Shown here piece by piece: positions 4,642 through 55,960 of a stretch of DNA of 60,429 nt (position 1 is the first letter of the stretch; each line of letters opens with the position of its first letter). Both the position numbers and the translations under genes were made by a program. Source of the stretch: a virus (lineage: Duplodnaviria > Caudoviricetes); IMG/VR virus record IMGVR_UViG_3300045996_001806, positions 1 through 60,429 of that record; one strand, 5' to 3'. The notes beneath the pieces are model-generated. The model saw only the letters and a list, made by a program, of their open reading frames with translations. It was not told the DNA's origin and ran no database searches.

Positions 4642-5201
4642 TCCCGACGATCACCTGGCACCTGCCGCGCCCGCCGAAGTCGCGCTATCGCGGCGGCTTC
4701 CCGCTCCACTTCGAGGACAACCTGATCCAGCTACTCGGCTACCCCGAGCAGATCCTCCAGCCCTTCGGCGGGCGCGCCGAGCACGGGATTCGCGTCGACC
4801 TCGACCCGCTGACCGAACCCGATGTCGTGGCCGACGCGCACGAGCTCCCCTTCGCCGACGAGTCCTTCGACTGCGTGATCCTCGACCCGCCCTACTCCGA
4901 CGAGGAGGCGCTCGAGTTGTACGGGATCACCCGGCGCCTCGAGCCGGCGAAGTTCGTCGCCGAGGCCGTGCGCGTGCTTCGCCCCGGCGGCGATCTCGTC
5001 ATCTACACAGACCGCGAGCCTCGCCGCCCACCGCGCTGCAATCATCGCTGCCGGATCATGGTCACGCTTCGCCCCGGGCACTCACCGCGGGTGTGCATGG
5101 TCTTCCAGAAGCGAAAGCCCGGGATGCCGTTCTACGGGTCCGAGGCTGGCGAGGAGTTGCCGGACGCCGAGCCTTCTGTCATCCTCGGGGCCGCGCCGTA
5201 G
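4638..5201 (+). CDS. Amino (N6A/N4C) methyltransferase-like protein
   Basis: PFGG SAM-binding-like motif, DPPY catalytic motif, RVLRPGG. Confidence 0.75.
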   Translation: MIPTITWHLPRPPKSRYRGGFPLHFEDNLIQLLGYPEQILQPFGGRAEHGIRVDLDPLTEPDVVADAHELPFADESFDCVILDPPYSDEEALELYGITRRLEPAKFVAEAVRVLRPGGDLVIYTDREPRRPPRCNHRCRIMVTLRPGHSPRVCMVFQKRKPGMPFYGSEAGEELPDAEPSVILGAAP

Positions 5202-5265
5202 AGCAGTCCGGTAGCTCGCCTGGTTCATTGCCAGGAGGTCGCGGGTTCGAATCCCGCCGGCGCTA
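5192..5265 (+). tRNA. tRNA-fMet-like (anticodon CAT) with atypical anticodon arm; CCA not encoded
   Basis: Cloverleaf: CGCGCCG/CGGCGCT acceptor with C1:U72 mismatch, GAGC/GCTC D stem (A11:U24), CCTGG-TTCATTG-CCAGG, GCGGG-TTCGAAT-CCCGC. Confidence 0.9.
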
Positions 5266-8786: not shown

Positions 8787-8888
8787 CGATGGCGCGACCT
8801 TCTCACGACGATGCCTTTCGGCCCGGCCGCTGACCTGCGCCATCGTCGTCGTATGTTGGCGGCCGGACCGAAGGGCGAGAGGTAGACC

Positions 8889-21489: not shown

Positions 21490-21558
21490 AGCGAGGAGGA
21501 GACCCGATGTTGAGCGATATGGCACAGCCAGTGCTCTTCATCGGGTCTCCGTTCGCTC
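21490..21558 (+). other. Long RNA hairpin covering SD and ATG of a 29-aa uORF (21507-21596)
   Basis: Perfect 12-bp inverted repeat GGAGACCCGATG (21498-21509)/CATCGGGTCTCC (21539-21550) with inner GAGC/GCTC and TGGC/GCCA. Confidence 0.65.
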
Positions 21559-42664: not shown

Positions 42665-43009
42665 ATGACGACTGGACTTCTCCTCACGTACCCCTTCTCC
42701 GACCGCGACGGCAAGGCCGCCGACATGGAAGAGGCCTGGGCGATCTGGCACGAGCGCGCTCTGCGCGAGCTGCGGTTCCGCGCGAGCCTCGACCAGGACG
42801 ACATGCTCGAGCTTCGGGAGGTCACGCTCACCGAGCGGGTGGCTGCACGAGATGCTGGCGATGTCTGCCACGTCTGCGGGGAACTCGTGACCTGGGTCGA
42901 CCACCTGCCCCCGCGTGATCCCTTCGGCGCCGTGCGCTGCTTCAAGAACGTGCGCACGCTGCAGCCGACGCAGATCGAAGTCATCGACATCCTCGGGAGG
43001 CAGGTCTGA
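42665..43009 (+). CDS. Hypothetical protein (CxxC)
   Basis: SD GAAAGGG. Confidence 0.7.
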   Translation: MTTGLLLTYPFSDRDGKAADMEEAWAIWHERALRELRFRASLDQDDMLELREVTLTERVAARDAGDVCHVCGELVTWVDHLPPRDPFGAVRCFKNVRTLQPTQIEVIDILGRQV

Positions 43010-44154
43010 TGAGCCAGGCACCAGCAGTCCGCGAGATGCCGGATCAGGCTGCTCCGGCGCTCCGTACCGAGAACACGCTCTCCAACGAGCAGATCCGCTA
43101 CATCGCGAACACGGAGATCGTGCCGAAGCACCTGCGCGGCAAGCCCGACGCGATGATCGCGGTCATCCTCAAGGGCCGCGCGCTCGGCCTCGACGACATC
43201 CATTCGCTGACGGCCGTCAACTTCATCGAGGGCAAGCCGACGCTCGCCGCCGAGACGATGGTCACGCTCGTGCGCCGACGCGGCCACTCGATCATGTGGG
43301 ACGCGAAGACCGGCGAGTCGTGCACGGTGACTGGCAAGCGCTCCGACACCGGGGACGAGGGTTCCGTCACGTGGACGATGAAGATGGCCAAGGACGCGGG
43401 CCTGATCGGCAAGGACAACTGGCGCCGCTACCCCGACACAATGCTCTTCTGGCGTGCGGTGTCGCAGCTTTGCCGGATGCTCTTCGCCGACGTCCTCATG
43501 GGCGCCTCGTACACCGAGGACGAGGCCCAGGAGGCAGCCGAGCGCGGCCGCGTCACTGAGGCGGTCTCCGGGCTTCCCGCGGTCGAGGAAGCGCACATCC
43601 GCCAGGAGCCGGTCGCCGGCCCCAGCGAGGCGCAGCTCAACCGCCTTGCTCGGCTCGAGGAGCGCTCGGGCGATGCCTACAAGGTCGTGCTGCGCGGCGT
43701 GTTCGGGGTCGAGATGTCCTCGCAACTCGACGCGAGCGCGGCAACCCAGTACGAGGCGATGCTGACGCAGGCATTGCCTCCAGAGGACTCGGCAGAGGGT
43801 CCACACGAGGGCACGCCCTCGGACGAGGACGAGCGTGGAGGCTCCTCACCTGACGGCGATGAGAAGAGCGACTCGTCCCCCTCTGCCGAGCTACCCGACG
43901 AACCCGCGCCGGAGGTCGACGAGGTGGTCAACGGCGAGATCGTCGAAGAGACGGACGAGCGCCTCATCGAGATCGCTGGCGAGACCGAGATCCCGATCGG
44001 CAGCTACCGCGGCAAGACGCTCGCCGAGATCCACGACGGCTGGATCAAGTACGGCCTCGAGAACACCGGGAAGCTCCCGGATGCGTTCGTCGAGGCCCTC
44101 GAGCTTTGGGCGCGCGAGCGCAAGCCCGAGATCTGGCAGCAGGTGCGCGGATGA
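43009..44154 (+). CDS. RecT-like single-strand annealing protein
   Basis: IVPKHLRGKP, G..LGL, I.GKP, A..AGL..K.NW..YP..ML..RA, F.DVL.G..Y..DE. Confidence 0.85.
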   Translation: MSQAPAVREMPDQAAPALRTENTLSNEQIRYIANTEIVPKHLRGKPDAMIAVILKGRALGLDDIHSLTAVNFIEGKPTLAAETMVTLVRRRGHSIMWDAKTGESCTVTGKRSDTGDEGSVTWTMKMAKDAGLIGKDNWRRYPDTMLFWRAVSQLCRMLFADVLMGASYTEDEAQEAAERGRVTEAVSGLPAVEEAHIRQEPVAGPSEAQLNRLARLEERSGDAYKVVLRGVFGVEMSSQLDASAATQYEAMLTQALPPEDSAEGPHEGTPSDEDERGGSSPDGDEKSDSSPSAELPDEPAPEVDEVVNGEIVEETDERLIEIAGETEIPIGSYRGKTLAEIHDGWIKYGLENTGKLPDAFVEALELWARERKPEIWQQVRG

Positions 44155-44567
44155 GCACCTACCGGAAGAAGCCGGTCAAGGTCGAGGCGGTCCAGCTTCG
44201 CGGCGGTTACACCCAGGAGATCAAGGACTTCATGGGCGAGCACCCGCATGAATGGGACGGCGCGGTGGGCCTGAAGATCCCGACGCTCGAGGGCGTCATG
44301 GTCGCCTCGCAGTACGACTGGATCATCCGCGGTGTGGAGGGAGAACTCTACCCCTGCAAGCCCGGCATCTTCGGAGCGACCTACGAGGAGGTCCTCGAGT
44401 TCGACGCCGAAGAGCAGACGGCCGAGTGCGAGCCGCACCTCGGGTGCGCGACGACGGCGCAGATGCTCCACGAGTTGACTGTGCGCGCGGAGATCGGCGG
44501 CTACGCCAACTACCGCACCGTGGATGGTCACGACGCACTCGAGAAGCCGGTCGACCTGCAGCCATGA
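44151..44567 (+). CDS. Conserved phage protein (YRKKPV family)
   Basis: YRKKPV.VEAVQ, IPTLEG.M.A...DWIIRGV.GE.YPCKP.IF..TYE. Confidence 0.8.
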   Translation: MSTYRKKPVKVEAVQLRGGYTQEIKDFMGEHPHEWDGAVGLKIPTLEGVMVASQYDWIIRGVEGELYPCKPGIFGATYEEVLEFDAEEQTAECEPHLGCATTAQMLHELTVRAEIGGYANYRTVDGHDALEKPVDLQP

Positions 44568-45559
44568 GCGACACCGCCGAACGTCTCCGAGGCGCGACGC
44601 GCTGGTCGATGGCGTCGCGCTGCGCCCGGCAGGCGAGCTACGGCCTGCTCGGCGTCGAGCCGACTCCGCCGACTGCCCGGGAGTCCGGGCGCATGGCTCG
44701 AGGTCGCGACGCTGGTCAGTATTTCGCTCGCCAGATGGCCGCGAAGCACGGCGCCGAGAACGTCATCCCCGAGATGGGGATCCCGTGGCCCGCGCCTCCG
44801 GCCCTGCCCATCGGCGAGCTTCACATCGACGTCGGCCTCATCAAGGACCGGATCGCGATCGAAGCGAAGAACTCGATCTACGTCGACTCCATGTACGACT
44901 CGGCGGTCATCCAGCTCGCCGGCGCGCTGCACTTCGGGCGCGAGCACTTCGACTCCGGTCTCGTCGTCTTCCTCGACCGCGACTACCAGATCACGCACGA
45001 GTTCCCGGTCTTCCTGACGGACGAGCTCGTCGAGAGCGTCGAGACGATCGCCGCGGCCGTGATCGAGGCCGGGAAGAACGGCACGATCCCCGAGCGCGTC
45101 TGCAGCACTCCCGCGGATGGCAAGGGACGCTTCTGCCCGTTCATCGAGCACTGCTTCGAGGGCTGGGTGCCGCCGGATCCCGATGAGCGCGCCGACCTCT
45201 CGCAACTCGCGTCCGAGGGCTGGCTGATCCAGCGCGATCTGAAGGCCGCGCGCGGCAGCGAGAAGGAGTTGCAAGAGCGCTGGGACGAGTGGAAGGAGCG
45301 CATGGCGGCCGCGACCGAGGGGACGCCGCCCGGCGTCGAACTCCTGGCTGGCCCGGTGAAGATCAAGCGCATCGACGTCAAGGGCCGCGAGACCTTCTCG
45401 CTGGCCAAGGCGCGCACCGCTGGCGTCTGGGGTCCCGGCGACGAAGAGCGCTTCGGCCCCTTCACGAAGATCGGCGAGCCGTCTGTGCGCTTCGACCTCA
45501 TGCGCACCGAAGCGGGCGGAGATCTCGACATCGACTACGGCGAGGAGGCTCCGTTCTGA
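44564..45559 (+). CDS. Cas4-like PD-(D/E)XK exonuclease
   Basis: S.ASRC.R, HID...EAK, QL, C...FCPF..HC. Confidence 0.8.
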   Translation: MSDTAERLRGATRWSMASRCARQASYGLLGVEPTPPTARESGRMARGRDAGQYFARQMAAKHGAENVIPEMGIPWPAPPALPIGELHIDVGLIKDRIAIEAKNSIYVDSMYDSAVIQLAGALHFGREHFDSGLVVFLDRDYQITHEFPVFLTDELVESVETIAAAVIEAGKNGTIPERVCSTPADGKGRFCPFIEHCFEGWVPPDPDERADLSQLASEGWLIQRDLKAARGSEKELQERWDEWKERMAAATEGTPPGVELLAGPVKIKRIDVKGRETFSLAKARTAGVWGPGDEERFGPFTKIGEPSVRFDLMRTEAGGDLDIDYGEEAPF

Positions 45560-45822: not shown

Positions 45823-46259
45823 GCATCGTCGAGAGAGGGCAGGCGGAGATCGAGCAGCGCGAGCGCGAAGCTCAGGCCCGTAGGGAGCGCTGGTACGACG
45901 AGAACCGCCGACACACGATCTCGAGGTTCCGGCAGGACTTCTACAGGCATCTCTACATCCGCAATCCGGACAAACGCGCCTGGTCGCGCGTGATCCCCGG
46001 CCCGGACATGCCCGAAGTGACCGACTGGGATACCACTGGCCCTGGCGATACACGCGCGCCTTCCACCTTCATCTGCGAGGGCATCCGCTACGCCTGCCGC
46101 TGGGAATACAGGGGAGGCTCGGACCGCGCGGACTGGGATGACGGCTGGTGGCCCCAGTGGTTCGTTGTCGTCGAGCGGCCCAGGTTCTTCGGGCTGCTGC
46201 GTCGGCGCGAAGAGATCCAGGTGCACGGCCCTGCGCAGGTAGCGGAAGCGCTGGCATGA
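45819..46259 (+). CDS. Hypothetical protein
   Basis: ATGA overlaps. Confidence 0.65.
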   Translation: MSIVERGQAEIEQREREAQARRERWYDENRRHTISRFRQDFYRHLYIRNPDKRAWSRVIPGPDMPEVTDWDTTGPGDTRAPSTFICEGIRYACRWEYRGGSDRADWDDGWWPQWFVVVERPRFFGLLRRREEIQVHGPAQVAEALA

Positions 46260-47458
46260 GGATCATCACCCTCAAGGCCGAGAACGTGAAGCGGCTGAAG
46301 GCGGTCGAGATCTCACCCGACGGCGACGTCGTGGTCATCGCCGGCCGCAACGCACAGGGCAAGACAAGCGTGCTCGACGCGATCTGGATGGCGCTGGCAG
46401 GCGCCGCCGGAGCGAAGGAGACGAGCCGCCCGATCAGGGACGGCGAGAAACAGGCGAGCGTAGTGCTCGACCTCGGCGATCTCGTCGTCACCCGGAAGTG
46501 GACGGATGCGGGCACTTCGCTCGCCGTAGCTGCTGCTGATGGCGCGAAGTACCCCTCCCCGCAGTCCGTCCTCGATGGTCTGATCGGGCGGCTCACCTTC
46601 GACCCGCTCGCGTTCGCAGAGGCCTCGCAGAAGGACCAGCTTGCCACGCTGCTCTCGGTGGTCGAACTCCCCTTCGACCCGGCGAAGCTCGCGATGGAGC
46701 GGCAGGGCATCTTCGACCAGCGCACGGACGTGAACCGCGAGATCAAGCGGCTCGAGGGGGCAATCGGCGAGATCCCCGACTACCCCGATGGCACGCCGGA
46801 TGAAGAGGTCTCGGTCGCCGACATCGCCGAGGAACTCGCCCTAGCCGAGCGCCTGTCAGCGCAGTACGAGGCCATGAACGCGCAGCTTCAGCGCGACCAG
46901 GCACGTCTGCGGGAGATCGAAGAGGAGGCGCGGGTCCTTCGTGCTGCGATCGCATCGGGCAAGTCCGAACTCGAGAGGTACTCCATGCCGGATGCCGATG
47001 CGCTGCGCGAGCGCATGGCAAGCGCCGAGTCGGTCAACGCGCACGTGCGAGCACAGGCGGAGACTCGTCGGCTCGTGGGCCAGCGCGGAACGATGCTGAC
47101 GGAATCCGAGCGGCTCACCGCCAGGCTCGCTGAGATCGACCGCGGGAAGGCCGACGCTCTCGCCAAGGCGAAGATGCCGCTCGAGGGCCTCTCCTTCGAC
47201 GACGAGGGCGTGCTCTTCAACGGCGTGCCCTTCTCGCAGGTCTCGGACTCGGAGAAGCTTCGCGCGTCGATGGCGATCGCGATGGCGCTCAACCCGAAGA
47301 TCCGGGTCCTGCGGATCACGGACGGGTCGCTGCTCGACTCCGAGAACATGCGCCTCATCTCGGAGATGGCCGGCGAGCACGACTTCCAGGTCTGGATCGA
47401 GCGCGTCGACGAGTCGGGAGAGGTCGGCGTGACGATCGAGGATGGGGCAGTAGCATGA
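46256..47458 (+). CDS. SMC/Rad50-like ABC ATPase
   Basis: ENVKRLK, GRNAQGKTS Walker A, coiled coil, S.SE signature, DGSLLD. Confidence 0.9.
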   Translation: MRIITLKAENVKRLKAVEISPDGDVVVIAGRNAQGKTSVLDAIWMALAGAAGAKETSRPIRDGEKQASVVLDLGDLVVTRKWTDAGTSLAVAAADGAKYPSPQSVLDGLIGRLTFDPLAFAEASQKDQLATLLSVVELPFDPAKLAMERQGIFDQRTDVNREIKRLEGAIGEIPDYPDGTPDEEVSVADIAEELALAERLSAQYEAMNAQLQRDQARLREIEEEARVLRAAIASGKSELERYSMPDADALRERMASAESVNAHVRAQAETRRLVGQRGTMLTESERLTARLAEIDRGKADALAKAKMPLEGLSFDDEGVLFNGVPFSQVSDSEKLRASMAIAMALNPKIRVLRITDGSLLDSENMRLISEMAGEHDFQVWIERVDESGEVGVTIEDGAVA

Positions 47459-51990: not shown

Positions 51991-52294
51991 GCCACGCAGT
52001 AGACGCAGGGTGCAGATGTCCCTGTACGAGTCGGACGTCACCGAGCACCACCCCGATCTCGTAAAGGCACTCAACCATCGGCAGGCGATGTCCGAAGCGC
52101 TGTCGACGGCGAAGCAGAACTACGACACCGCGCACAAGGCGTGCGAGCCGCTCATCGCGAAGCTCGAGCTGGGCGAGGACGCCGCGGTGCGGGTGGGCGA
52201 CTTCGTGATCTCGCAGAAGCTCGGCAAGTCCGCGCACGTGGAGTTCGAGCGGAAGTCGTCACTGCGCACGAGGATCCGCAAGCTCGATGAGTGA
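51980..52294 (+). CDS. Hypothetical protein
   Basis: SD GGGAGG. Confidence 0.65.
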   Translation: MMVRPRSRRRVQMSLYESDVTEHHPDLVKALNHRQAMSEALSTAKQNYDTAHKACEPLIAKLELGEDAAVRVGDFVISQKLGKSAHVEFERKSSLRTRIRKLDE

Positions 52295-52829
52295 CGCGAT
52301 CCTCCGGATCTACAACCCCGAGGAGTGCCAACTCACGGGGTACCCGGCGGCGTGGGACCACGACTCGTTCATCGGGGCCGATCGCTTCCCGGCGATCAAG
52401 CACTACGTGCGGATGCTCGCCGGCGATCGCTGCGAGCGCTGCGGGCATCCGTACAGGGTCGGCCAGTCGGAGCCTCAGTGGTCGGCCTGCGACGAGCAGT
52501 GCGTACACGACGGACCCGTGAAGAAGGTGATTAGCGACGGCATCGAGTTCGAGCTCGTGCTGGCGAAGTGGCGCGTTCTCACCGTCCACCACCTGAACGG
52601 CGTCAAGTACGACTGCCGCTGGTGGAACCTCGCTGCTCTCTGCCAGCGCTGCCACCTCTCGATCCAGGGCCGGGTCGTCATGGAGCGCGCGTTCATTTTC
52701 GAGCACTCCGACTGGTTCAAGTCGCACGCGGCAGGCTGGTACGCCGACAAGTACCTCGGCGAGGACCTGAGTCGGGAGGAGACGTTCGCGCGCATGGACG
52801 AGCTCCTCGCGCTCGAGCAGCTCGCATGA
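52287..52829 (+). CDS. HNH endonuclease
   Basis: RCERCG, LTVHHL.G...DC...NL.ALCQRCH. Confidence 0.85.
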   Translation: MSDAILRIYNPEECQLTGYPAAWDHDSFIGADRFPAIKHYVRMLAGDRCERCGHPYRVGQSEPQWSACDEQCVHDGPVKKVISDGIEFELVLAKWRVLTVHHLNGVKYDCRWWNLAALCQRCHLSIQGRVVMERAFIFEHSDWFKSHAAGWYADKYLGEDLSREETFARMDELLALEQLA

Positions 52830-53035
52830 CGCTCTCGGAGAGACAGCGCCGCGCGCTCATCGTGCTGCGCAGCCACGGCAACTGGATGAGTTCGGGCCAC
52901 TTTGGCGTGAGAACGAACACCCTCGACTCGCTCCAGAAGAAGGGTCTCGTCGAGATGCGGACGCGCTACCACTCGCTCGACTTCGAGTACCGCATCATCG
53001 ACGACGGCCGGCGCCTACTGGCGTCCCTCGAATGA
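52826..53035 (+). CDS. Small winged-HTH-like protein
   Basis: LSERQRRAL...TL.SL.KKGLVE...Y.I...GR. Confidence 0.7.
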   Translation: MTLSERQRRALIVLRSHGNWMSSGHFGVRTNTLDSLQKKGLVEMRTRYHSLDFEYRIIDDGRRLLASLE

Positions 53036-53076
53036 GGTATTTCGCGCTCGAAGCGACAGGCCCGGATCGTTGGCCC

Positions 53077-53105
53077 TTGTAAGACGTCGGGTATGCCGTT
53101 AGGCT
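53077..53105 (+). promoter_or_regulatory. Sigma70/SigA-type promoter of the helicase gene
   Basis: TTGTAA-N17-TAGGCT. Confidence 0.7.
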
Positions 53106-53110
53106 CGTCG

Positions 53111-53250
53111 TTCTCGTGACGAGCTCTCTCTATAGGCCTGGGCAGTACCACCCGGGGTCGGTGCTCGTGGCGAAGGCGGGATCTGCTGCGGCGGATCCAG
53201 CCGCTCGCTCGTCACGAGGAGCCGCGAGCACCGTCCCGGGGTGGGGCTGA
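53111..53250 (+). ncRNA. Structured 5' leader RNA with 44-aa uORF (53116-53250)
   Basis: About 23-bp helix 53148-53171/53221-53244, inner hairpin, 12-bp complementarity 53113-53124/53207-53218. Confidence 0.65.
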
Positions 53251-53269
53251 GTTCTGGTAGGGCGGTCCG

Positions 53270-54895
53270 ACGTCTTCGCCTGCGCTAGAGCCGTATAACC
53301 TCGAGGCCGAAGAGACCGTACTCGGTGCGTGTCTCCTGTCGGGCTCGGCGATCGACGTCGCGAGCGAGTACCTCGAGCCATCGACGTTCTATCGCGATAC
53401 GCACGGCGCGATCTACGGCGCCCTGCAGGCGCTTCGCTCTCGCGAGCAACCCACAGAGCCGCTTGCCGTCGCGGCAGAACTAGAACGTCAGGGCAAGCTC
53501 GCGGCGGTCGGCGGAAAGGCTCGCCTGGCCGAGCTCGCGGCGCTGGTGCCGGCGACGGGCAACGTCGGCCACTACGCAGCGATGGTGCTCGAGATCCATC
53601 GCTCGCGGGTCCTCTGCCGTGCAGCCGTTGCGATCCAGGCTGCAGCACAGAACGGCGGCGTCTCGCTGCATCCCGAGCTGCTCGACGAGATGCAGGAGGC
53701 GATGGACGCGGCCCGCGCGCTTCCCGGCGAGCCTTCGCTCCCGCCGGGTCCGATCTTCATCACCGCTCACGAGTTCGCGGCGTCGCACTTCGAGCCGCCG
53801 GAGCCGTTGCTCGGGACCACCGAGACGGCGATCCTGGCGGCGGGAAGCTTGAACCTCCTCGCGGGGCGTCCGGGCACCGGCAAGACGACCACCGTGCTCG
53901 ACCTCTGCTGCCATCTCGCTGCAGGTCTTCCCTGGCCTCCAGTCGACCCGGCCAACACGAAAGCTCCGCAGTCGTGGCCGTGCCCCCGCCCCCTTCGCTG
54001 CGCGATCATCGTGAACGAGGGTCCGCAGGAGATGTTCCGGGCCAAGGTGCAGGACAAGCTCACGAAGTTCCCGCACTCGATTGAGGACGCCGGCGGCGGA
54101 CTCTTTATCCAGTCGCTGAACTGGGGCGCGTTCTCTTTCCGCGACCGCTCGATCTTCGAACGCCTGCGCGACGAGCTCGACAGCCGCGACGTTGACCTTG
54201 TGGTCGGAGACCCGCTCGGCTCGCTCGGCCTCGAGGGCGTCGGCTCTCCAGCCGAGACGCTCGACTTCGTGAACCTGCTGAAGCCCCTCGGACTCGGCAC
54301 GCGCAGGGCCTTCCTTTTCCTCCACCACTTCCGCGAGCGAGTCGAGAAGGGAGAGGACGAGGTAGCGCGCCTGTCGGGAGCCTGGGGCGGCCATCTCGAC
54401 ACGCTCATCACGCTCGCCGCCGGGTCGCAGACCGACCAATCGCGCCTCGCCTATCCGAAGTTGCGCTGGAACACCCGAGAAAATCCAAGTCCCATCGTCC
54501 TCGCGCGCATCCGGAACACCCGCAGCGTCGAGGTCATCGGCGAGGAGTCCGACCACACCCTGCTCGAGCCTCAGATCCACGCCTACCTCGAGCGCTCGCG
54601 AGAGACCAAGGCGGATACCCAAGGCTGGCAGACCACGGACCAGATCCGGGCGGGCATCGAGGCTCGCCGCGTGGCCGTGCAGAAGGCCCTCGAGGGCGCT
54701 CCGCATCTCTTCGTCATGGTCACAGGCGACGAGGCCAAGAACCTCGGCGCGAAGTCGAAGGCCGCAAAGCTCTGGGGCCTGCGCGAATGGACAGAGGGCG
54801 AAGACTGGCGCGCCGAGCTCGAGGAGGATTCCTTCGGCAAGGCCGACGAGCAGGCCCGCTTCACGGATCGCGGCTCAGACGACATCCCGTTCTAG
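53270..54895 (+). CDS. Replicative helicase: DnaB N-terminal domain + RepA/AAA_25-like ATPase; probable ACG start
   Basis: PYNLEAEETVLGACLL...FYRDTH..IY...ELE..GKL..VGG in frame upstream of 53546; GRPGTGKT, VVGDPL, FLHH; ends DDIPF. Confidence 0.8.
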   Translation, partial: TSSPALEPYNLEAEETVLGACLLSGSAIDVASEYLEPSTFYRDTHGAIYGALQALRSREQPTEPLAVAAELERQGKLAAVGGKARLAELAALVPATGNVGHYAAMVLEIHRSRVLCRAAVAIQAAAQNGGVSLHPELLDEMQEAMDAARALPGEPSLPPGPIFITAHEFAASHFEPPEPLLGTTETAILAAGSLNLLAGRPGTGKTTTVLDLCCHLAAGLPWPPVDPANTKAPQSWPCPRPLRCAIIVNEGPQEMFRAKVQDKLTKFPHSIEDAGGGLFIQSLNWGAFSFRDRSIFERLRDELDSRDVDLVVGDPLGSLGLEGVGSPAETLDFVNLLKPLGLGTRRAFLFLHHFRERVEKGEDEVARLSGAWGGHLDTLITLAAGSQTDQSRLAYPKLRWNTRENPSPIVLARIRNTRSVEVIGEESDHTLLEPQIHAYLERSRETKADTQGWQTTDQIRAGIEARRVAVQKALEGAPHLFVMVTGDEAKNLGAKSKAAKLWGLREWTEGEDWRAELEEDSFGKADEQARFTDRGSDDIPF

Positions 54896-55960
54896 CAATC
54901 TGCGGCCGATCCACTCAGCCACGTTGACGGTCACGGCGTCGCCGATCGCGGCGTAGCGCTTCGTGTCGGCGCCGGGAAGGGTCCAGTTGTCGGGGAGTCC
55001 CTGCAGCCGCTCGCACTCGATGGGCATGAGCCGGCGCACGGTCATCCCCTGGCGAACGGTCGAGTAGCCCTGCCCAGGCTTCCCGCCGCCCGCCGTCAGT
55101 TGGTGAGCATACGGCGTCTCGAGCACCTCGGCGCGCTGGTTCTCGGACACGGCGTAGGCGCCGATCACGTCAACGTCAGTTGTCCGGAATCCTCCGTCGG
55201 CGAGGGACCCGAAGGTTCCGGCGACCCGGCTAGAGAGATCAGGGCGACCTTCAAGAACGGCGGCAACGTCTTCCCCCTCTTCGTCGCTCGCGCCAGAATG
55301 CCGGCTGCAGCTCGCGTTGAGAGCAAGTACGTCTCCGGCACGTTCTGCGGCGGCTCGAGGATCTCCGTCAGCATGGGCTCCGAGGATGAACACCCGTCTT
55401 CGTCGCTGCGGCACTCCGAAGAAGCGGCTGTTGACAGTCCGCCAAGCCATGCCATACCCGAGGTCGGCCAGCGTGCCAAGGACTGCTCCGAAGTCCCGAC
55501 CGCCATGTGAAGAGAAGAGACCCGGAACGTTCTCGACAAGGACCCATCGAGGTCGAACAGACTCGGCGACTCGAGCGAACTCGAAGAAGAGTCCGGACTC
55601 GTCTCCGGCGAGGCCTGCGCGCTTTCCGGCGACGGAGACGTCGGTGCAGGGGAAGCCTCCGGCGAGGAGTCCGGGGAGGTCTCCTCGATCGCCACGAGGA
55701 GCTGCGGGTTCCCCGGGTAGCGCAGGTCCATCGGCGTCAGCGTCGGAGCCACCGGGGTCTCCGTCCAGATGTCCGCCTCGCGGCTCGAGCCCCTGTGCGA
55801 CTTCTCGAACGTCCGCGTAGACAATGCATCCGGGGAAGCGCTCGCGGAGGATGCTTCGTCTCCATCCGTCTTTCTCGCAGAGGAGGGTGTGGGTGAGTCC
55901 GGCTCGCCGGAGGCCCTCGTCGAGTCCCCCGATCCCGGAGAAGAGTGACCAGACATTCAC
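54875..55960 (-). CDS. dcm: DNA cytosine-5 methyltransferase
   Basis: LFSGIGG, GGFPC, ENV, PQRRRRVF, RRL.P.ECERLQG.P, IGDAV. Confidence 0.95.
   Translation of the reverse strand: MNVWSLFSGIGGLDEGLRRAGLTHTLLCEKDGWRRSILRERFPGCIVYADVREVAQGLEPRGGHLDGDPGGSDADADGPALPGEPAAPRGDRGDLPGLLAGGFPCTDVSVAGKRAGLAGDESGLFFEFARVAESVRPRWVLVENVPGLFSSHGGRDFGAVLGTLADLGYGMAWRTVNSRFFGVPQRRRRVFILGAHADGDPRAAAERAGDVLALNASCSRHSGASDEEGEDVAAVLEGRPDLSSRVAGTFGSLADGGFRTTDVDVIGAYAVSENQRAEVLETPYAHQLTAGGGKPGQGYSTVRQGMTVRRLMPIECERLQGLPDNWTLPGADTKRYAAIGDAVTVNVAEWIGRRLLERDVV
55165..55956 (-). CDS. Alternative-frame ORF inside dcm (M.EcoHK31I beta-like)
   Basis: 263-aa frame with W..SGM...G, SE.., L..ILE, Y.LS..A..GIL.RA..RGK.LP..L..AL. 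Confidence 0.55.
   Translation of the reverse strand: MSGHSSPGSGDSTRASGEPDSPTPSSARKTDGDEASSASASPDALSTRTFEKSHRGSSREADIWTETPVAPTLTPMDLRYPGNPQLLVAIEETSPDSSPEASPAPTSPSPESAQASPETSPDSSSSSLESPSLFDLDGSLSRTFRVSSLHMAVGTSEQSLARWPTSGMAWLGGLSTAASSECRSDEDGCSSSEPMLTEILEPPQNVPETYLLSTRAAAGILARATKRGKTLPPFLKVALISLAGSPEPSGPSPTEDSGQLTLT

Follow-up and report, generated by a model that had tools for sequence, protein, structure and literature searches.

A putative ACG start codon and a candidate leader RNA at the helicase gene of a Caudoviricetes genome

The virus record IMGVR_UViG_3300045996_001806 (Duplodnaviria; Caudoviricetes), from a soil phage, was analysed over its whole length of 60,429 bp (henceforth, the window), a linear sequence with a CheckV completeness of 78 and a GC content of approximately 67%. 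On its + strand, a replicative helicase gene without a canonical start codon is preceded by a gap of 234 nucleotides (nt), and this gap contains a hairpin that is predicted to be far more stable than expected by chance. The reading preferred here, which is quite possible, if short of probable, is that the gap encodes a new cis-acting + strand leader RNA, which gates the weak, ACG-initiated translation of the full-length helicase. A structured leader ahead of a replication gene is of a known kind, and the unusual feature is the absence of the canonical start.

According to this reading, the core of the RNA would be the hairpin at 53143-53249, and the full-length protein (DnaB_N plus AAA_25) would be initiated at ACG 53270 through the Shine-Dalgarno-like (SD-like) sequence AGGGCGG, at a start that would be intrinsically weak. 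The start region would be held in three competing pairings, that is, a local hairpin, a 10-bp helix with 53081-90, which would be possible only in read-through transcripts, and a 10-nt helix with 53169-78. The leader would set, and may switch, the frequency with which ribosomes initiate at the ACG, and the output of helicase would be low or conditional. We infer the transcription of the leader, the use of the ACG, and the regulation by these pairings, and the label of "switch", which an earlier sequence-only reading of the window had given to the leader, is an interpretation of the same kind.

The helicase gene and its putative start codon

The proposed gene is defined by three features:

53270-54895, + strand: helicase gene as proposed, with ACG start (53270-72), DnaB_N domain, AAA_25 (RepA-like) ATPase domain, and stop (54893-95)
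53258-53260, + strand: in-frame TAG, the 5' bound of the helicase frame, present also in the contigs of other runs
53259-53265, + strand: SD-like AGGGCGG, 4-10 nt before the ACG, partly within the stem of the start hairpin

The open frame of the helicase runs from 53261 to 54892, with no ATG, GTG, or TTG from 53261 to 53546 (95 codons), which bears out the claim of the sequence-only reading that the start is non-canonical. Among the 27 coding-like open reading frames (ORFs) of the window, the helicase is alone in having a long start-less 5' part, which reaches at most 38 codons elsewhere. The frame encodes a complete Pfam DnaB_N domain (E 1.8e-25; residues 10-111, covering positions 2-103 of the 103 in the profile), with no stop inside it. 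The domain is intact, with 73% identity to its counterpart in the relative P0011, which indicates that selection acts on it and that translation of it is required. The ATPase domain belongs to AAA_25 (RepA-like; E 9.6e-17) in Pfam, and the PHROG match is to family 19, DnaB-like helicase. Given that members of the DnaB family combine DnaB_N with the RecA-type domain DnaB_C (PF03796), which the ATPase domain here did not match, the protein is better described as a DnaB_N-AAA_25 fusion. Gene callers shorten this helicase, as in the call of the source itself (P0001, 437 amino acids, aa), which starts at ATG 53582, inside DnaB_N, and annotation pipelines may systematically miss starts of this type.

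Three other explanations of the missing start were rejected. A genome-wide alternative genetic code would affect more than the one of 27 ORFs seen here, read-through of the TAG fails because the upstream part of that frame has no start, and an intron joining the preceding 69-aa ORF to the helicase is contradicted by the relatives, which all lack an N-terminal domain of this sort. Nor can the TAG, the ACG, and the hairpin be put down to misassembly of the record, because Logan contigs from runs of two other studies are identical to the window, with 0 differences over 53082-53399 (X7) and over 52950-53206 and 53241-53450 (X5). Nine runs contain the window sequence, each with a share of the sampled words of 0.66 or more.

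Nine codons lie between the TAG and a conserved EPxNxEAEE motif (GGC GGT CCG ACG TCT TCG CCT GCG CTA), and ACG 53270 is the only one from 53261 to the motif that is a single base away from ATG. Initiation at this codon would produce M-S-S-P-A-L-E-P, in register with the N-termini of the relatives. Forty-one members of the DnaB_N-AAA_25 family, with an N-domain identity to the window of 39-78%, were compared, and 18 of these start 1-14 residues before the motif, typically with M/V/L-S-[T/S/A]. The N-termini that match the window in this way lie 4-8 residues ahead of the motif. The pairing of AGGGCGG with a generic anti-SD motif is worth -7.2 kcal/mol, compared with -1.7 to -2.4 kcal/mol at the other candidate starts (53116, 53241, 53546, and 53582). 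A conserved protein with no canonical start before it, and an ACG with an SD sequence at the homologous position, form the sequence pattern of a near-cognate start, and the ACG is, on this basis, a possible but weak start codon. Among the papers listed by searches of the accessible literature, none describes an ACG start in a phage gene, and the one that concerns a non-canonical start in an actinobacteriophage deals with GTG.

The relatives provide a hint of the age of this codon. A threonine of P0011 aligns with the window ACG (Q-T-S-P-A-A-I-E-P), which hints at an old ACN codon at this position. The proposed start codon is located inside the palindrome GACGTC (CCGACGTCTT, 53267-53276), which P0011 could also retain (Q-T-S being encoded by CAR ACN TCN). 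More distant relatives from the same soils diverge upstream of the conserved motif (window 53290), where a contig of the X7 set has ...AGGC ATG AGC ACC..., while a consensus of two X5 contigs, which is unreliable (agreement 0.78), has ...AGGC ACG AGA ACC..., and may represent a second ACG at the start position.

The gene calls of the other relatives are also irregular. In 19 of the 41 (P0006, P0013, P0017-P0020, P0024-P0029, P0031-P0036, and P0092), the call begins inside DnaB_N, and four more have long extensions. Such calls could reflect contig ends, errors of start prediction (for instance, where the GAGGAG of EAEE mimics an SD sequence ahead of a GTG), or further non-canonical starts. The truncated calls are unclustered on a quick tree, with 13 changes, compared with a mean of 14.1 after shuffling, and a value as low in 179 of 500 shuffles.

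The leader hairpin and the pairings at the ACG

The predicted fold of the leader core is made up of the following elements:

53143-53249 (107 nt), + strand: core three-way junction, formed by P1, P2, and P3
53143-71/53221-49, + strand: P1, 29 positions with 24 Watson-Crick pairs, 2 G.U pairs, and 3 mismatches
53175-53202, + strand: P2, predicted structure
53205-53220, + strand: P3, predicted structure

The long three-way-junction stem noticed in the sequence-only reading is real and non-random. The core (53140-53252) folds with -80.1 kcal/mol, compared with a mean of -54.0 for its shuffled versions (z -6.86, with 0 of 200 shuffles as good), while the longer stretch 53100-53300 (201 nt) has a z of -4.56. 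P1 ranks first of the 45 inverted repeats found across the whole window. On the minus strand, the core reaches only -65.8 kcal/mol, which is 14.3 weaker, the U.G pairs being the cause of the difference. A structure beyond chance on the + strand, with its core ending 20 nt before the ACG, is what is expected of a structured cis-regulatory 5' leader of a generic type. Two other strong hairpins of the window are found at gene ends and are possible terminators, at 8813-8876 (27-nt arms with a 10-nt loop) and 21498-21550 (18-nt arms with 89% complementarity).

The start codon itself is covered by several potential pairings:

53081-53090, + strand: 5' arm of a 10-nt inverted repeat (AAGACGTCGG), which pairs with 53267-76 in read-through transcripts
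53267-53276, + strand: 3' arm of this repeat, which covers the ACG
53260-53281, + strand: start hairpin GGGCGG/UCGCCU (53260-65/53276-81), with the ACG in a 10-nt loop and part of the SD sequence in the stem

The two arms of the repeat form a perfect 10-nt complement (-15.7 kcal/mol), which is present in the predicted fold of 52990-53330. The energies for the start hairpin, which a helix (53251-58/53284-91) is predicted to extend in transcripts that start near 53112, are -7.2 and -19.0 kcal/mol. A third complement, between 53169-78 on the junction strand and 53271-80, matches in 9 of 10 positions (-16.8 kcal/mol). These competing helices at the ACG, as modelled, would be the concrete basis for a regulatory reading of the leader.

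A further potential pairing would connect the 5' end of the putative transcript to the junction:

53113-53124, + strand: 5' partner of a 12-nt complement, containing copy 1 of an 11-mer (CTCGTGACGAG, 53113-23)
53207-53218, + strand: junction partner in P3, holding copy 2 of the 11-mer (CTCGTCACGAG, 53208-18)

The perfect complementarity claimed for these two segments in the sequence-only reading is exact over 12 nt (100%), and the duplex is worth -22.0 kcal/mol. The same reading had proposed either a pseudoknot or mutually exclusive folds. A nested fold with the 12-bp helix forced reaches -91.1 kcal/mol, compared with -102.3 for the minimum free energy structure, and is thus 11 worse, whereas a pseudoknot that keeps P1 and P2 and replaces P3 with the 12-bp helix has approximately -94.8 plus -22.0 kcal/mol, before any penalty. 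These energies allow a pseudoknot and make a simple two-state switch less likely.

The structure is crossed by a short upstream ORF (uORF):

53116-53250, + strand: 44-codon GTG ORF, with its stop 19 nt before ACG 53270

The near-leaderless uORF of the sequence-only reading is present as an open frame, although it does not exceed chance, and is probably a chance ORF, one that may nevertheless be translated. Its GC content by codon position (0.68/0.73/0.73) differs from that of the three neighbouring genes that were measured (approximately 0.6-0.7/0.41-0.48/0.84-0.91), no coding signature is found in any of the six frames of the leader, and no Shine-Dalgarno match precedes its GTG (-2.4 kcal/mol). 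Open frames of 44 codons are common at 67-74% GC, by our own estimate.

Conservation of the leader and rival explanations

Two of the relatives, both from Logan assemblies, appear to carry a homologous leader, given that the N-terminal extensions of P0011 (588 aa) and P0012 (564 aa) are out-of-frame translations of it. Both are known as proteins only. P0011 was back-translated, and the forced differences from the window were counted among the determinable bases, as follows:

P1 5' arm: 2 of 14
P3: 1 of 10
P1 3' arm: 1 of 15
Junction and P2: 6 of 10
Spacer 53250-69: 6 of 12
Adjacent DnaB_N coding region: 51 of 231

The paired arms of P1 and P3 thus differ at 4 of 39 positions, and P2 with the junction and the spacer at 12 of 22. 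The P2 of P0011 is also 15 nt shorter than that of the window. There is no forced difference at the determinable positions of 53207-18 in P0011, while the 11-mer is seemingly not kept in P0012, from a reading of the alignment by hand. The individual changes tend to be compatible with the helix: at 53247, opposite G53145, a C to U change in both P0011 and P0012 keeps the pairing as G.U, and at 53223 and 53235 the C to U changes of P0012, opposite G, are also G.U-compatible. An A to G change at 53150 in P0011 has its partner at a third codon position, which is unreadable, and two further forced changes are at positions that are unpaired in the window. A C to U change opposite a G maintains the helix in the + strand RNA only, which, together with the 14.3 kcal/mol asymmetry between the strands, favours an RNA of the + strand. 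This is partial evidence that the arms of the stem are under selection.

The helicase itself is a mosaic. The N domain of the window is nearest to those of P0011, P0024, and P0010 (72-78%; P0011 73%, P0024 78%), while its ATPase domain is nearest to those of P0006 and P0002-P0005 (75-79%; P0006 79%, P0005 77%), and only 61% identical to that of P0011. Given this, the leader appears to move together with the start and DnaB_N as a single module. The AAA_25 core is found with varied N-terminal modules, including none (about 400-420 aa), DnaB_N, Prim-Pol (PF09250), and Toprim-type (PF13362). In IMG/VR, the relatives L002-L007 are helicases of 411-420 aa without DnaB_N, and the sole relative with DnaB_N, L042, has a GTG start that overlaps the upstream stop, with no leader. 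Apart from L042, and from L002-L007 with their duplicates, which are C-terminal relatives, searches of GTDB genomes, IMG/VR, and JGI metagenomes recovered only distant DnaB genes.

Searches with the leader itself recovered little else. The Infernal search proposed in the sequence-only reading found no Rfam family, returning only a chance match to CRISPR-DR29, on the opposite strand, in 52000-54500 at E<=10, and only a tRNA over the whole window at the gathering score. A leader 20-mer pattern occurs at seven loci of IMG/VR, none of which encodes the helicase, and nucleotide searches of phage and plasmid collections reached a best E of 0.9 and 0.005, respectively, over no more than 24% of the query, which is at the level of chance. 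A covariance model built from the single sequence, and run on the window and 35 loci, found nothing better than E 0.23 beyond its own sequence (on both strands). There was no match to the leader by blastn in the related loci from GTDB genomes, IMG/VR, and JGI metagenomes, the leader-derived N-terminus of P0011, used as a protein query, retrieved only P0011 itself, and the protein of the minus-strand ORF over the leader retrieved nothing.

Several points weigh against the leader reading. The comparison rests on three sequences, no double-sided change is visible among them, and the G.U compatibility assumes that the unseen 5' arm of P0012 is unchanged. P0011 could start at an upstream Val codon (if this is a GTG) or at the called ATG, which would make its threonine uninformative. 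The leader has no homolog in Rfam, IMG/VR, or the phage and plasmid collections, and the runs listed for the window sequence are DNA runs only. A stable fold is likewise predicted for the minus strand (z -5.87), given that inverted repeats score as RNA on either strand, and both 11-mers are palindromic, which is typical of protein-binding DNA sites. The dedicated promoter of the sequence-only reading is not distinguishable from chance:

53077-53105, + strand: weak promoter-like hexamers, TTGTAA (53077-82) and TAGGCT (53100-05), with a 17-nt spacer

These hexamers match the consensus at only 4/6 and 3/6 positions, and a promoter scan of 52000-54500, which is a weak test, found no promoter-like site on either strand at its threshold. 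The sole additional support for a promoter is the GC content of the 5' flank (53036-53142), of 59.8%, compared with 66.6% in the window. The weakness of the start is a further point. In one study of E. coli (bioRxiv 10.1101/063800), the codons with initiation at about 0.1-1% of the AUG level include ACG, whose product was confirmed by mass spectrometry. This is a seemingly low level for a protein essential to replication.

The alternative that best withstands these data, although it is unlikely, is that the elements act as DNA. In this case, the 11-mers would be operators of a dimeric protein, or the inverted repeat would be a replication origin or single-strand initiation hairpin, and the RNA fold would be a by-product. 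Both partners of the 12-nt complement are the same palindromic 11-mer, CTCGT[G/C]ACGAG, and the two copies are mutually complementary because each is self-complementary apart from its central base. They are the only two exact copies in the window, 95 bp apart, and copy 1 is embedded in a larger palindrome:

53102-53125, + strand: 9-bp hairpin H0, palindrome GCTCGTCG-TTCTCG-TGACGAGC (-12.7 kcal/mol), containing 11-mer copy 1

H0 spans the putative -10 hexamer and transcription start as a palindrome of 22 bp, in the AT-richer flank, and it is the only exact copy in the window. The palindromy of the 11-mers suits a dimeric DNA-binding protein and is not needed for the pairing of RNA with RNA, which keeps the operator reading alive, and a pairing of RNA and a protein-binding DNA site explain the 12-nt complement equally well. 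The absence of a forced change at copy 2 in P0011 and the folding of the minus strand are also consistent with a DNA element, as would be a likeness to the oriV of IncQ plasmids, where single-strand initiation (ssi) hairpins are used with RepA, an AAA_25-type helicase. By contrast, the greater stability of the + strand through U.G pairs counts against this reading, and the C to U changes of the relatives opposite G would be mismatches in a DNA cruciform. The window contains no iterons and no further copies of the 11-mer, with none of up to one mismatch nearby, and there is no turn of the GC skew near 53 kb. The adjacent 69-aa protein is not identifiable as a DNA binder by either family or structure searches, and the apparent loss of the 11-mer in P0012 is a further point against operators.

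The leader RNA may also be no switch at all, and instead a static cleavage site of the RNase III type or a 5' stabiliser, which uncouples the helicase mRNA from the upstream operon, a reading that is somewhat less credible than the DNA element. P1 is well suited to this role, being a duplex of 29 positions with three single mismatches, located in the one large gap that interrupts an otherwise tightly coupled operon, and with conserved arms and a variable apical P2. Such an element would nevertheless leave unexplained both the absent start codon and the perfect 12-nt and 10-nt complements in which the 5' flank and the start codon take part.

An improbable alternative is a selfish or decaying feature, that is, a palindromic insertion before the helicase, with the loss of its start (ATG to ACG), and the production of a short, internally-started helicase or none. 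The region is bracketed by the perfect 10-nt inverted repeat 53081-90/53267-76, the helicases of L002-L007 suggest that a short form could work without DnaB_N, and the gene call of the source starts at 53582. L042 and 18 of the 41 relatives have ordinary starts, in the former case without a leader. Against an insertion, blastn found no second copy of the leader in the window, nor was there one in IMG/VR or the phage and plasmid collections, and no target-site duplication was seen. In addition, DnaB_N is intact and similar to that of P0011, which carries the leader, the same sequence recurs in the nine runs, and the internal starts have no SD sequence.

The sequence-only reading also proposed a logic like that of the P4 CI or P1 C4 RNAs, in which a processed, trans-acting immunity or copy-control RNA would be made from the leader, and this is now very unlikely. 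The segment 53207-18 has a perfect complement upstream, within one transcript unit and close to replication genes, but it matches nothing in Rfam even at the permissive threshold, has a single target, with no second one in the 60-kb contig, compared with the two of P4, and there is no terminator-like site in 52000-54500. Recoding is hardly credible: a ribosome could hop from GGC 53245 of the uORF (followed by TGA) to GGC 53261, as in gene 60 of T4, given the matching codons 13 nt apart and the stop after the take-off site, or shift by -1 from the frame of GTG 53241, whose frame-0 ORF (to TAG 53288) overlaps that of the helicase, but the uORF lacks a coding signature and an SD sequence, no relative has a comparable conserved extension, no slippery heptamer was seen in 53261-53288, and a match of GGC codons would occur by chance in roughly 5% of cases, by our own estimate.

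The preferred reading of a cis-acting leader that gates a weak ACG can also be extended, in a form that is doubtful, to a whole clade of uncultured soil phages. In this form, the clade would deliberately start its helicase at a conserved ACG, and the pseudoknot-capable leader would read the state of translation or transcription of the host, and time replication accordingly, with the stringency of initiation factor 3 (IF3) or the balance between read-through and local transcripts as the possible inputs. A tRNA-Met of the phage might take part in relaxed initiation. This tRNA, which has a CAT anticodon, is located at 5192-5265 on the + strand (ARAGORN call, Rfam 56.6 bits) and may be initiator-like. 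As judged by eye, its acceptor stem is topped by a C1.U72 mismatch, and its D arm (A11) resembles that of an initiator. Only two G-C pairs adjoin the anticodon loop, which has the odd sequence UUCAUUG. If this extension holds, the 19 relatives with calls inside DnaB_N would represent further hidden non-canonical starts. If the preferred reading itself holds, the phage gene would be a case of the natural, conserved use of an ACG start codon, and the leader would represent a new structured family controlling a replication protein, and a candidate timing device for temperate or soil phages.

Genomic setting and comparison with known systems

The helicase belongs to an early module for recombination and replication, which is on the + strand and includes the following genes:

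43009-44151, + strand: RecT-like protein
44252-45556, + strand: exonuclease
46148-47455, + strand: SbcC-like ATPase
52287-52829, + strand: HNH endonuclease
52826-53035, + strand: 69-aa ORF, the last gene ahead of the gap, with its ATG overlapping the stop of the HNH gene (ATGA)

The 69-aa protein belongs to no Pfam or PHROG family, and its AlphaFold model, which is of low confidence (predicted local distance difference test, pLDDT, of 68.5), has no Foldseek match in the PDB at E<=0.001. A winged-helix identity, which was the first impression from the sequence, is unsupported by these searches. The 69-aa ORF shares its reading frame with the helicase, with three in-frame stops between them (TGA 53033, TGA 53117, and TAG 53258), an arrangement that has a chance of one in three and that corresponds to no fusion in any of the 41 relatives. 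Downstream, a convergent gene for a C5-cytosine methyltransferase (54875-55960, minus strand) overlaps the 3' end of the helicase by 21 nt.

Some features of the leader recall the RNase III sites of early phage mRNAs, such as the intergenic R sites of T7 and the N leader of lambda, which are also long intergenic duplexes with small internal mismatches, upstream of a gene that they can influence. The window differs in its three-way junction and in having further long-range complements, which involve the 5' flank and the start codon. In T7, genes 4A and 4B provide an example of replication proteins with two starts, and the helicase of the window may similarly have a long form from the ACG and a short form from GTG 53546 or ATG 53582, although these internal starts lack an SD sequence. 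The infC gene of E. coli has an AUU start that is sensed by IF3, and the likeness is that of a weak start codon, discriminated by IF3, in a dosage-sensitive gene. In the window, the codon is ACG rather than AUU, the product is a phage helicase and not a translation factor, there is no known feedback partner, and the conservation of the ACG rests on the Thr codon of one relative.

The CI RNA of P4, in one account (PMC4825925), causes termination by way of two targets, which flank it on the upstream and the downstream side. The leader of the window shares with P4 CI and P1 C4 a segment embedded in the leader of a replication operon, which is complementary to a site in the same transcript, but it has no covariance-model match, a single target (53113-24), and no termination site.

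In the IncI1 and IncB plasmids (repY-repZ and repB-repA), as described in one source (PMC8053102), a structured leader contains a short ORF that ends near the start of rep, and a long-range pseudoknot is needed for the translation of rep. Defining features of these leaders are a pseudoknot between a hairpin loop and a site beside the rep ribosome-binding site, and an antisense RNA gene that has a promoter of its own on the opposite strand. The likeness to plasmid rep leaders proposed in the sequence-only reading survives in part, with these two features lacking. No antisense promoter or antisense RNA gene was found in the window (from the scan of 52000-54500, a weak test), its 12-nt pairing joins the 5' end to P3, and not to the SD and ACG region of the helicase, its uORF looks non-coding and has no SD sequence, and its start codon is an ACG, with no sequence similarity to the plasmids. 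What is retained is a leader ORF with its stop 19 nt ahead of the proposed start, together with a possible pseudoknot-type pairing of 12 bp, and the rep leaders of these plasmids, with their leader ORF, pseudoknot, and reinitiation, are the systems that the window would most resemble, and its closest working likeness.

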